From a virus (lineage: Duplodnaviria; Heunggongvirae; Uroviricota; Caudoviricetes): 4,476 bases of DNA. Both the position numbers and the translations under genes were made by a program. The notes under the pieces were generated by a model, which saw only the letters and a list, made by a program, of their open reading frames with translations, was not told the DNA's origin and made no database searches. Numbering within the stretch: position 1 is the first letter of the stretch; each line of letters opens with the position of its first letter. Positions 33-4,123 of the stretch are shown here, piece after piece. The DNA lies in the IMG/VR virus record IMGVR_UViG_2703718848_000014, one strand, 5' to 3'.

Positions 33-1196
33 TTACACATCATTAGTACCTTCCTTATTTTTTGACTGGGACAAATTTGGGACCGATGGGTTCAGGATCG
101 AGTCTATTTGCCGTGCGTGTTCGGTAAGGTGATTAGGTGCAAGGTGAGCATATCGACGAACCATTTCGATAGACTCCCAGCCTCCCATTTCCTGTAACAC
201 TGACAACGGGACTCCGGCTTGAACCAGCCAACTTGCCCAGGTGTGTCTCAAGTCGTGAAATCTGAAATCATCAATACCAGCCCGTCTCAGCGCCGCTTTC
301 CAGGCTGTGTTTGCGTCATACCGCATCTTCCTTACTGTTGGCGCTTTCGTTCCGTCTGGTTTGGTACAGCTTTCCTTGTACACAAATACCCAACGGTGAT
401 GATTCCCGATTTGTTTTTTCAAAACGCGACATGCAGTATCATTCAGCGCAACGCCGATTGCGCGGTTTGATTTACTCTCTTCCGGGTTTATCCATGCCAC
501 CCGGCGCTGCATATCTATTTGTTGCCATTCAAGGTTGATGATGTTCGAGCGTCTTAAGCCTGTTGCCAGTGCAAATTCAACAACAGACTTTAATGGCTCC
601 GGACATTCATCAATCAGCCTTTGTGCTTCATGGGGCTCCAGCCAGCGGATCCGTTTATTCTTTGGTTGAGGCACTTTAATAATTGGTGCCTTATCCAGCA
701 TTTTCCATTCACGCTCTGCGGCTCTTAGTAGGGCCTTTATAAATGAAAGATGCGTAGCCTTCGTTGCAACGGACGCTGGTTTTGGCGTGTATTCTGGAAC
801 AGGTTTCCCTTTTTTTCTGCATGCTTCTGCCCTGAGTTTCCAGTTTTCCTCATGACGCCGGTTCGTCATTTTCTGCATTGCTGAATAAATTTTTGATTCA
901 GTAATGTCTCTTAGTTGCATTCCTGCGAAATGTTGAAGCCAGAATCCGATCCGGCTTTTGTCATCGTCCAGTGATTTTTTATGTGCTTTCTCTTCAAGCC
1001 ACCTGACACATGCTTCCTCGAACGTTATATCAGGTATTTCACCAAGTTTACTGACCCGCCATGCTTCAGCCTTTAGCTTGTCATGGAGTTCTGTCGCCTG
1101 CCTTTTGTCCTTTGTTCCAAGAGACTGTTTAAATCTTTTACCGTTCGGCAATGTGAAACTGGCGTACCATATTTCACCTCTGCGGAAGAGTGACAT
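33..1196 (-). CDS. int: phage tyrosine integrase (site-specific recombinase), P22/DLP12-like, 387 aa
   Basis: ORF begins [41 protein letters not shown], which I recognise as the P22-family Int N-terminus. C-terminal catalytic signature is present: HDLRHT (H-x-x-R box) and RRYAHL (catalytic Tyr). SD-like GAGGAAAG lies 5 nt upstream of the ATG at 1196. Position next to a tRNA 3' end fits an attL-side integrase. Confidence 0.95.
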
Positions 1197-1423
1197 TTTC
1201 TTTCCTCTGTTATGCCATCACCCGCGCTCACCTGGACAGTATGCAGCGGAGACTGAAGAGCCGCAATGCAGGCTTGTCGTGTTGTGAGGTAAGGAGATTT
1301 ATTCTTAGTGGGATCTTTGCGTGTTGCCTGAAGACGCCCTGTGCGTATCCAGTTAATAGCAGTCGGTCTGGATATCTTGAGAAAATGACAGGCCTCATCG
1401 AGTGTGAGGCTGTATGGCTCCAT
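1073..1423 (-). CDS. xis: excisionase / recombination directionality factor (helix-turn-helix), 116 aa
   Basis: Start taken at the internal ATG (1421-1423) of the 144-aa ORF, giving [31 protein letters not shown], a typical N-terminal HTH of phage excisionases. Strong SD AAGAGGTGA precedes this ATG at good spacing. The ATG overlaps the stop of the upstream ORF (TAATG). The 3' end overlaps the int start by 124 nt in another frame, as in lambdoid xis-int pairs. Confidence 0.8.
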
Positions 1424-1680
1424 TATTTCACCTCTTGCTGTGACATTGTTGAAAAACGGATACCAGCTCGTTGCTGCCAGACGATCCAACCGAGAGTCAT
1501 ATCCCATGCCATGTATTCATTATCGCCGTTTTTTGCTCTCCGACGATCGACTGTTTTACCGAAACGCTTTTCCATAAATAATTCATAGGCTGCGCGTTCA
1601 TCTGGCTCAACTTCCAGAGATGCCAGTGCAATAAAACTCAATGCTCTGCACTTTATTCCGTGCGCGCTCAAGCAGTGCAT
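1423..1680 (-). CDS. small hypothetical phage protein (ea-region), about 85 aa; N-terminus uncertain, possibly frameshifted
   Basis: Open frame whose stop overlaps the xis start (TAATG), so at least its C-terminal two-thirds (...PDERAAYELFMEKRFGKTVDRRRAKNGDNEYMAWDMTLGWIVWQQRAGIRF...) is very likely translated. The ATG at 1680 has no SD. A well-placed SD plus an ATGA stop/start overlap with the upstream gene occurs instead at 1702 in a different frame (see findings). Confidence 0.5.
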   Translation of the reverse strand: MHCLSAHGIKCRALSFIALASLEVEPDERAAYELFMEKRFGKTVDRRRAKNGDNEYMAWDMTLGWIVWQQRAGIRFSTMSQQEVK

Positions 1681-1698
1681 GGTAGTTAATTTCGGTTG

Positions 1699-2577
1699 TC
1701 ATACCCCTACCTCTTCGAATTCCAATTTCAATTGATCACCCCAGATTTCACATGACTCTGAACACGAACCGGTATCGAATCGCCTGGCCTGTACCATCGC
1801 CTGATACAAATTTCTGTAGTCGCTGTTGGCAGACATTCTGGCAATTCCGTCAAGCGTCAGGTGACCACGGTACATAATGTCTTTACCTGTTCTGCGATGA
1901 CCATCCCTGACGTGTTTGCCTGTAACCAGCTCATTAAAAACTCGCATCAGACCTGGTTCGTCTTTACATGCAAGCCCCAGCTTTTGCGTTGACTTTTTGA
2001 TGCAGAAAACACAGTTCCCGAGATGCTCCGGGATTTGCAAATCAAAAGGTTGTTTTCGCCACCACCGGATAACATCCGACTTATCAAAATCTGACAGCTC
2101 GGCAAGATACCGGACGCCCGATTTCGGTTTCAGCCTACGGGGTTCGTCTGCACGAATACCCAGCCATGTGATGTAATTACCTCGCCCGAAATGGTTATCG
2201 CAGTATTTCGTGAAAGGGATGAGTTTTAGCCTGTCAGTACAGAACGCGCCGCCGATGTATGGCGTGCCGTACTTTTTAACCATGTCCATAAACGGTTTAA
2301 GCACCGGCATTCGTGTCTGAATATCCTTTGGCTCCCATTCTGTATAACCATTTGGCTGCCCAAGCTCAGGATTTATATCGACCTGTAACACAGTTAGTGG
2401 TATGTCCCAGAACTTTACAACCTCCCGGATAAAGCGGTATGTCAGCGGATGTTCGCAACCGGTATCCATAAAGATATAGCAGACGTTATTGCCAGCCTTT
2501 CTTTGTTCTTCCATCAGGTGAACAAGATATGCGGATGTTCTCCCGCCAGAAAAACTAACTACATGAGTTATGCACAT
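1699..2577 (-). CDS. PAPS-reductase-like / PP-loop ATP pyrophosphatase family protein (phage-type, Cys-rich C-terminus), about 292 aa
   Basis: N-terminus MCITHVVSFSGGRTSAYL carries the PP-loop motif (SGGxxS) just after the first beta-strand, as in the PAPS reductase/DndC/QueC superfamily. The C-terminal part has paired cysteines (NCVFC, CSESC) compatible with a metal or Fe-S site. Start chosen at ATG 2575-2577, which overlaps the HD gene stop by 10 nt. The longer ORF-track start at 2694 lies deep inside the HD gene without an SD. Confidence 0.8.
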   Translation of the reverse strand: MCITHVVSFSGGRTSAYLVHLMEEQRKAGNNVCYIFMDTGCEHPLTYRFIREVVKFWDIPLTVLQVDINPELGQPNGYTEWEPKDIQTRMPVLKPFMDMVKKYGTPYIGGAFCTDRLKLIPFTKYCDNHFGRGNYITWLGIRADEPRRLKPKSGVRYLAELSDFDKSDVIRWWRKQPFDLQIPEHLGNCVFCIKKSTQKLGLACKDEPGLMRVFNELVTGKHVRDGHRRTGKDIMYRGHLTLDGIARMSANSDYRNLYQAMVQARRFDTGSCSESCEIWGDQLKLEFEEVGV

Positions 2578-3104: not shown

Positions 3105-3261
3105 CGTTAGTTCTCCTTAATTGGTGCGCTGCACCGCACGATTTTTGGTTGCACGAATCCCTCGCCATAAGGCGATTAAAAGTTTTGGTTTCGTTTCAGT
3201 AAATGCCCCATCCAGAGGCACTTAGTGCAACGGGCGGCTGCCATCGCCAGTTATTTTCCCC

Positions 3262-3346
3262 ACTCAATTGAAAGCGCGTTCCGGAGGTTTTGGACTTAAC
3301 GAACTGGCACTTAATGACAAGGGACAGAACGCGCTTTCAGTTGAGT
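3262..3346. repeat. inverted repeat: 20-bp arms (3262-3281 and 3327-3346) separated by 45 bp
   Basis: Left arm ACTCAATTGAAAGCGCGTTC; right arm GAACGCGCTTTCAGTTGAGT. 19 of 20 positions are Watson-Crick complementary. The single exception is a T/G pair that would be a G-U wobble in a plus-strand RNA but an A-C mismatch in a minus-strand RNA. Confidence 0.6.
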
Positions 3347-3492
3347 AAAAAGGTGGCTATTCATCAGAACATTGTCGCCTTCATTAGGTTTATCTGTTGA
3401 AGATCTGTAAGCCGCTTATAAATAAGTAGATATAAGATATTAGGAAAAGAAGAAGGACGTTATAGTTTTATTTGTGATGTGCAAAGTATATT

Positions 3493-3516
3493 TGAATAAA
3501 ACCCGCCCAGCGGGTT
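3493..3516 (-). terminator. rho-independent terminator for the AT-rich gene
   Basis: On the minus strand, 10 nt after the TAA stop of the 198-aa ORF: stem AACCCGC, loop TGG, stem GCGGGTT, immediately followed by TTATTCA (T-rich tail). Confidence 0.6.
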
Positions 3517-3526
3517 CTAAAGTGTT

Positions 3527-4123
3527 TTAATGATTGTCGTGATAATTAATTGGCTCATCATTTTTTTTGTCTGGCATAGTTATGGACCACTTTATATTCT
3601 TTAGGCTGTTATGTTTTTTATTGACCTTAAGCTCTCTCTTTGCTTCAGAGATAATATCGTCTAGTAATACTTTTAATTTATCAAGTCTTGACTTGTGGGC
3701 ATCTATCAACTCTATACTATCAAACTCCCATTGTATAAATAGATTTTCTTCATTTTCAATGAATGAACGGATTTTATCCCCACACTCTTCTGTTAAGAAT
3801 AATGAAGATAGCTCACCTATTCTACTGAGTTTTTCAAGCTCATTAGAGAAAGATTTGCTAAGGATTTCATTTTCTTCTTTTGATTTGTAACTAAAGTAGG
3901 TTGGGAATTGTGAGGTGTGATGTAACTCCTGTTTATACCAATAGTCAGCTGTGTTTTTTAGAAGATAAACACAGTCAACTAATTGCGTATACAAATCTAT
4001 TCTTTTGTCCCACCATTTTTCTTTATAATAACGGCCGAGTGCATATCGCGCAGTTAAGTAAGCTGCGATTGAGCCTGTAACAAGTCCGATAATTACCTTT
4101 GATATAAGGTCATGCCAATCCAT
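3527..4123 (-). CDS. hypothetical membrane-anchored protein, 198 aa, in AT-rich cassette (moron-like); function unknown, candidate exclusion/defence protein
   Basis: Long ORF in a region of markedly lower GC than the flanking phage genes (judged by eye at roughly one-third GC versus about half). N-terminus MDWHDLISKVIIGLVTGSIAAYLTARYAL followed by GRYYKEKWWDKR is a single predicted TM helix with a positive flank. The remainder is K/E/Y/W-rich and I recognise no family. Weak SD AGGGAAAA is 5 nt upstream of the ATG; its own terminator follows. Confidence 0.75.
   Translation of the reverse strand: MDWHDLISKVIIGLVTGSIAAYLTARYALGRYYKEKWWDKRIDLYTQLVDCVYLLKNTADYWYKQELHHTSQFPTYFSYKSKEENEILSKSFSNELEKLSRIGELSSLFLTEECGDKIRSFIENEENLFIQWEFDSIELIDAHKSRLDKLKVLLDDIISEAKRELKVNKKHNSLKNIKWSITMPDKKNDEPINYHDNH

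Follow-up and report, generated by a model that had tools for sequence, protein, structure and literature searches.

A 114-codon YfdT-like prophage gene upstream of xis, very probably broken by the replacement of 67 bases with TT

Every gene in the window (the whole stretch of 4,476 nucleotides analysed here, from the viral record IMGVR_UViG_2703718848_000014) lies on the minus strand. In the order of reading, a 198-aa ORF is separated by a 422-base non-coding gap from an HD-hydrolase (YfdR-like) gene, which is followed by a PAPS-reductase-family gene, an interval with two small frames, xis and int (Table 1). The PAPS-reductase-family ORF ends with ...EEVGV-TGA, its TGA being at 1701-1699. Two of the ORFs called mechanically probably extend too far at their 5′ ends, namely xis, which is 144 aa long when begun at ATG 1507, and the PAPS reductase, which is 331 aa long when begun at ATG 2694; the long form of xis is annotated in several public records. 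The true starts are likely ATG 1423 for xis and ATG 2577 for the PAPS reductase, since both overlap the preceding stop codons and ATG 1423 also has a Shine-Dalgarno (SD) sequence.

Table 1. Positions of the genes and of the parts of the broken gene in the window
Feature	Position	Strand	Remarks
int	1196-33	minus	
xis (excisionase)	1073..1423, ATG 1423-1421	minus	own SD GAGGTG; directly downstream of the broken gene
3′ remnant of the broken gene, ORF bases 136-345 of the intact gene (I46-K114 and TAA)	1423..1632	minus	100% identical to L041 and others
85-codon ORF, 16 out-of-frame codons (MHCLSAHGIKCRALSF) plus the 3′ remnant	1423..1680	minus	ATG without SD
Out-of-frame tail YCTGISGS, counted from codon 24, to TGA 1609-1607	1607..1632	minus	
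Deletion joint, TT in place of 67 bases (CGCCTTAAC...CTGGCACGG, ORF bases 69-135)	1633..1634	minus	from alignments
5′ remnant of the broken gene, ORF bases 1-68 of the intact gene (codons 1-23, MTTEINYHALLERARNKVQSIEF)	1635..1702	minus	100% identical to L041/L044/L048/L049
SD sequence AAGAGGTAGGGG of the ancestral 114-codon gene	1704..1715	minus	read directly; anti-SD duplex -8.7 kcal/mol
PAPS-reductase-family gene, 292 aa	1699..2577	minus	Pfam PF01507; upstream of the broken gene
HD-hydrolase (YfdR-like) gene	3104-2568	minus	
198-aa ORF	3527-4123	minus	

Several features of the neighbouring sequence are recorded here in their own right. The PAPS-reductase-family protein matches the PADLOC model for SspD moderately (E=1e-14) and those for BrxP and DndC weakly; no partner defence genes were found near it, and the matches probably reflect mere shared PP-loop/PAPS-reductase ancestry. 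Along its whole length the AT-rich 198-aa ORF has a match in phrog_17948 (E=3e-94), and it matches no family in Pfam, NCBIfam or PADLOC. The same position in related prophages lies between a LexA-like repressor and the early-left genes, and this ORF may be a moron gene. A small G+C hairpin at 3497-3519 (AAAACCCGC / GCGGGTT), directly past its stop codon, looks like its terminator. A long and near-perfect hairpin is also found in the 422-base gap (3255-3351), with arms at 3262-3281 and 3327-3346 that are 20 bases long and can be extended to about 27 pairs. Its folding energy as minus-strand RNA is -35.6 kcal/mol (z = -4.6 against shuffled sequences); it has no match in Rfam, and terminator, processing site and operator are its candidate roles. 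Scans of the whole window with Rfam and for tRNAs gave no matches.

The two small frames between the PAPS-reductase-family gene and xis differ sharply in their start signals, which were scored by the predicted pairing with the 16S anti-SD. One of them opens at ATG 1702-1700, which overlaps the PAPS-reductase TGA as ATGA, with AAGAGGTAGGGG ahead of it; it reads MTTEINYHALLERARNKVQSIEFYCTGISGS and ends after 31 codons with TGA at 1609-1607. The other is in a different frame and comprises 85 codons from ATG 1680-1678 to TAA 1425-1423, the TAA overlapping the ATG of xis as TAATG (1425-1421). This 85-codon ORF shares its frame with the PAPS gene and begins 7 codons past the PAPS stop. The predicted pairing energy is -8.7 kcal/mol for ATG 1702 and +0.1 kcal/mol for ATG 1680, compared with -7.1 kcal/mol for xis and -9.2 kcal/mol for the HD-hydrolase gene. 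The original prediction, made from the letters of this DNA, had pointed to the strong SD and the ATG overlapping the PAPS stop, to the 31-codon frame ending at 1607-1609, and to the 85-aa ORF devoid of an SD; all of these are indeed present on the minus strand. Among homologous loci, the SD and the ATGA start are kept in 34 of the 34 examined, the SD always having the form (G/A)AAGAGGTAGGGGTATGA. Since the same SD and ATGA start recur in all 34 loci, a chance origin of this arrangement is ruled out.

It is evident from near-identical relatives that the interval corresponds to a single gene. Four public E. coli assemblies (L041, L044, L048 and L049) match the window with 100.000% identity across the 2842 and 1632 bases that flank the joint, and the sole difference is that they have 67 bases where the window has TT at 1634-1633. 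Their gene at this position is one continuous ORF of 114 codons that has the SD and the ATGA start of the window and joins xis by the same TAATG, and the intact protein reads MTTEINYHALLERARNKVQSIEFALTQSAFAEIRAELENDLELARIALASLEVEPDERAAYELFMEKRFGKTVDRRRAKNGDNEYMAWDMTLGWIVWQQRAGIRFSTMSQQEVK. Complete E. coli genomes likewise annotate a single 345-base gene at the locus (e.g., WP_000206059.1). When complete E. coli genomes were searched with a 381-base query, the matches were full-length with 98-99.7% identity, always in two pieces spanning 446 bases. The exact PAPS-reductase protein of the window was found in 180 blocks of the protein collection, and in 10 of the 10 contigs listed for it the next gene is an uninterrupted 114-codon ORF. 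The gene order in those contigs is LexA-like repressor, 198-aa ORF, HD hydrolase, PAPS reductase, 114-aa gene, xis, int and thrW/proA.

Intact-type sequence was also found at 33 IMG/VR loci, and the ORF is readable in 32, one being cut by the end of the locus. The ORF has 114-115 codons in 29 of the 32 readable loci and 112 codons in another one, with the same SD/ATGA start. The remaining two loci carry other, independent frameshifts: one extra G after codon 19 in L030, and in L029 a change in a T-run near the 3′ end (after IHF), from which the frame runs on into xis. These separate frameshifts suggest that the 114-codon gene occasionally decays, or is mis-sequenced, independently. In intact alleles, the ATG equivalent to 1680 opens only an out-of-frame ORF of 17 codons, and ATG 1680 itself is fortuitous and no conserved start.

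The alignments account for both frames in the window. The 31-codon frame consists of codons 1-23 of the intact gene and 8 out-of-frame codons, and codons 46-114 of the same gene make up the last 69 of the 85-codon frame. The net loss is 65 bases, and the downstream codons are therefore out of frame. It had been proposed that both frames are halves of one frameshifted gene with the lesion between 1610 and 1700, and alignment with homologous prophages bears this out by giving one continuous ORF at the locus. The T-run near 1632-1640 had been named as the suspect site, and the T-run at 1633-1636 is exactly the joint of the deletion. The nature and the size of the lesion were misjudged: a single-base indel and a fused protein of about 93 aa had been expected, whereas the alignments give 67 bases replaced by TT and the intact protein has 114 aa.

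The event is best described as a replacement of 67 bases with TT. The ancestral ends were most likely TTC...CGG, given that the TTT and CGT alleles each have 0 matches in IMG/VR and the TTC allele has 33; on these counts, a clean 65-base deletion from an ancestor ending in TTT or CGT was rejected. A two-step alternative (loss of 52 and 13 bases, with TTA kept) fits the letters equally, but two events are needed. Direct repeats are absent from the deletion endpoints and the region is not repetitive. Nor is there a stable hairpin at the lesion, where the region folds no better than shuffled sequences (z = +2.1). A slipped-strand or hairpin origin of the deletion was rejected for lack of endpoint direct repeats and of unusual folding.

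The broken allele was not met with again in the collections searched. A 91-base query across the joint matched 179 of the 5,426 complete E. coli genomes, with the best matches in two pieces spanning 156 bases (65 more than the query), and no contiguous match was found in any of the 5,426. The extra 65 bases are present in all 179 complete genomes with the module, in 30 of the 32 readable IMG/VR copies, and in each of the 10 contigs with the exact PAPS reductase. Neither the GTDB species genomes nor IMG/VR nor the JGI metagenomes contain the exact 33-base joint. An exact look-up among about 15 billion proteins gave no match for the 85- and 31-aa products, for the 82- and 72-aa versions from alternative starts or for the conceptual in-frame fusion, and the intact 114-aa protein of the same collection is on 553 contigs. 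A 50-aa form from the internal ATG 1575 is on 9 contigs, and all matches listed are 17-64 bases from a contig end; this form was rejected as the same allele and attributed to truncated gene calls at contig ends.

By sequence comparison, the broken gene belongs to the uncharacterised YfdT/SfV-orf28 family. Phrog_660 (function unknown) is the sole family match of the 114-aa protein; the intact relative reaches E=5e-23 and the 85-aa frame of the window E=3.8e-17. The 114-aa protein has no family in Pfam, NCBIfam or PADLOC, neither it nor the 85-aa ORF has a Pfam match at E≤0.1, and no sequence relative of the 114-aa protein is found in the PDB. Members of the family lie directly upstream of xis with the stop/start overlap TAATG, which is the same in SfV, K-12-type and thrW prophages, and the gene in the window has this position; an uninterrupted ORF from the SD-linked start to the TAATG stop is what it lacks. 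Homologues share a common core module beneath varied N-termini. The whole conserved core (I46-R100 in alignment A4) is retained in the frame of the 85-codon ORF (frame B), the invariant residues of the alignment being D56, E57, E62, F64, M65, K67, F69, V73, D74, R76, N80, G81, Y85, M86, W88, D89, W97 and R100. In the AlphaFold model of the 114-aa protein (mean pLDDT 65), residues 7-53 form a confident helical hairpin and the core is poorly modelled; a Foldseek search of the PDB with this model gave nothing below E=1. According to the model, the deletion would take away the turn together with the end of helix 1 and the greater part of helix 2.

Taken together, it is very probable that one 114-codon prophage gene has been broken by the replacement of 67 bases with TT, and that the two small frames are its halves. 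None of the sequence comparisons speaks against this reading. As expected of a frameshifted pseudogene, an intact orthologue exists in near-identical genomes and the frame is broken by a defined lesion. The interval would then be a disrupted gene of the early left operon in a thrW-integrated E. coli prophage of the SfV/P22-integrase type. Because 67 bases are replaced with TT, ribosomes starting at 1702 should read 23 native and 8 wrong codons before the stop at 1609-1607. The conserved C-terminal two-thirds are now in the frame of the PAPS gene, and the 85-codon ORF appears only because the out-of-frame ATG 1680 happens to stand ahead of this part. The full-length protein would no longer be made, and traces of the C-terminal module at most would arise via reinitiation or slippage. 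Since termination at 1609-1607 falls 184 bases short of xis, translational coupling into xis would presumably be lost as well. This loss is the sole possible downstream effect, and xis retains its own ribosome-binding site, the SD GAGGTG.

Other explanations have to be weighed against the broken gene. It is unlikely, though it deserves the most serious consideration among them, that the source strain has an intact gene and that the 65-base gap with its TT comes from assembly or consensus calling. Such an artefact would be consistent with the 100% identity of the remaining window to four public assemblies, with the occurrence of the joint nowhere else in the searched collections, and with deletion ends that offer neither repeats nor a hairpin as a cause. 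It is at odds with the non-repetitive nature of the lesion region. Sequencing errors typically take the form of homopolymer indels of 1-2 bases, which a 67-to-2 replacement does not resemble. The independent lesions of the gene in L029 and L030 further argue against an artefact and make real decay plausible. The allele would be read as an ordinary private pseudogene, or possibly as an assembly error. It is decidedly unlikely that the 85-codon ORF is translated and functional, which would take reinitiation at ATG 1680, 19 bases past the PAPS stop, and would yield a YfdT-like core with a new N-terminus of 16 residues. This possibility is favored by the retention of every invariant residue of the family core, by the mosaic and variable N-termini in the family, and by the closeness of ATG 1680 to an in-frame termination site. 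However, ATG 1680 has no SD (+0.1 kcal/mol), a strong SD-linked ATG on the same stop codon should take the reinitiating ribosomes, and ribosomes on the 31-codon frame would cross ATG 1680. Moreover, the arrangement is unique to the sequence of the window, and the predicted N-terminal helical hairpin (7-27 and 31-53, pLDDT about 85) is destroyed. A trace product from reinitiation is nevertheless conceivable, as frame B keeps the entire family core.

The four-U run that the deletion has created exactly at the joint raises the possibility of a compensatory or programmed +1 slip on GAG-UUU-UAU (1639-1631), in which tRNA-Phe would move from UUU to the overlapping UUU and the native frame would be restored. 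The product would be MTTEINYHALLERARNKVQSIEF-IALASLEV..., that is, the native protein minus residues 24-45, an exact in-frame deletion of 22 residues. UUU-pyrimidine sites were reportedly found by Schwartz and Curran in 1997 to be somewhat prone to shifting in E. coli. Compensatory frameshifting past indels, at a low level, is also a recognised phenomenon (PMC5009743). The layout with two frames is not conserved, however, and all the relatives are single-frame; the next codon is UAU, which is not a stop and not a rare codon; nothing like an SD stimulator is present 3-6 bases upstream, and the preceding bases are GCAUUGAG; and the fusion protein is absent from about 15 billion proteins. The site has a UUU-U run but lacks the two-frame conservation, the slow A-site codon and the SD-like stimulator of a prfB-like programmed +1 shift, and we consider such a slip highly improbable. 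Least probable of all is that a genuine small peptide is made from the 31-codon frame. The frame does have a strong SD and a coupled start, but in every relative these are the signals of the 114-codon gene, its last 8 codons are out-of-frame sequence made by the deletion, and its exact sequence is absent from the protein collection. Both a programmed shift and a genuine 31-codon peptide with reinitiation at 1680 had been put forward as alternatives in the original prediction. Neither finds comparative support, since the two-frame arrangement occurs in no relative; the ATG equivalent to 1680 leads there into 17 codons only.

It is very unlikely, all routes considered, that the allele is not null and still delivers the YfdT-like core through a low-level +1 slip of tRNA-Phe on UUU-U (1636-1633) or through reinitiation at 1680. 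If the slip were the route, this would be a case of compensatory frameshifting that rescues a fresh indel in a prophage gene. Under the far more probable reading of one gene broken by the lesion, the biological weight is small: an accessory prophage gene of unknown function has been inactivated in one genome. For annotation, 1423-1702 is better recorded as a single frameshifted pseudogene of a 114-aa YfdT-like gene, encoding neither an 85-aa nor a 31-aa protein.

The intact gene is itself mosaic. A search of phage genomes matched 1632-1400 with orf28/YfdT and xis of SfV-type phages at about 93% identity, and 1779-1667 with Stx phages, from the end of their PAPS reductase into the start of the gene that follows. 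The mosaic joint within the intact gene lies at 1667-1632 of the window, as seen with the relatives L001, L002 and L007. The first approximately 20 codons travel with the PAPS-reductase gene (Stx phages), and the last 69 travel with xis (SfV and K-12 YfdT). In sister prophages (e.g., in strain CX21), an EaE-like gene and a 101-aa YfdT replace the PAPS gene and the 114-aa gene.

The closest known counterpart is the gene for the WP_000206059.1-type protein of 114 aa, annotated as a hypothetical or DNA-binding protein in E. coli thrW prophages (e.g., A7A13_RS01325 in strain 357900). It occupies the same locus with the same SD/ATGA start and the same TAATG with xis, and its DNA is identical to the window outside the deleted 67 bases; the copy in the window, in contrast, is without ORF bases 69-135 and frameshifted, and no intact product is possible from it. 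YfdT of the E. coli K-12 prophage CPS-53/KpLE1 and orf28 of Shigella phage SfV are also encoded directly upstream of xis, and their C-terminal 69 residues (IALASLEVEPDER...QQEVK) show about 93% identity at the DNA level. Their N-terminal 45 residues, on the other hand, are unrelated to the 114-aa protein, with the mosaic joint falling within the gene, and their upstream neighbor is an EaE/YfdS-like gene rather than the PAPS-reductase-family gene found here. YfdT has no defined motif (PMC4776307). The only experimental information on the family is that, in K-12, yfdQ-yfdR in multicopy inhibits the initiation of replication when combined with either yfdS or yfdT (PMC4776307).

Two further groups share parts of the 114-aa protein. 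Ead/Ea22-like proteins encoded after the PAPS reductase (NinC) in Stx phages, such as XYY30709.1 of phi367, share the upstream gene of the 114-aa protein and begin, as it does, with the residues MTTEINY. In the exo-xis region, Ea22 proteins are modular, with an N-terminus that varies, a helical region and a C-terminal module that can be exchanged (PMC10834534), and the modular build of the 114-aa protein resembles theirs. The C-terminal module is different, however, and the 114-aa protein stays short of the gathering score of Pfam PF13935, which the phi367 protein matches with 47 bits. The DUF551-domain proteins of lambdoid prophages (about 190-200 aa) have the same core as the 114-aa protein, ...IALASL..DERAAYELFMEKRFG..VDRRRAKNGD.EYMAWDM..GW..W, but continue into a C-terminal DUF551 that is absent from it.
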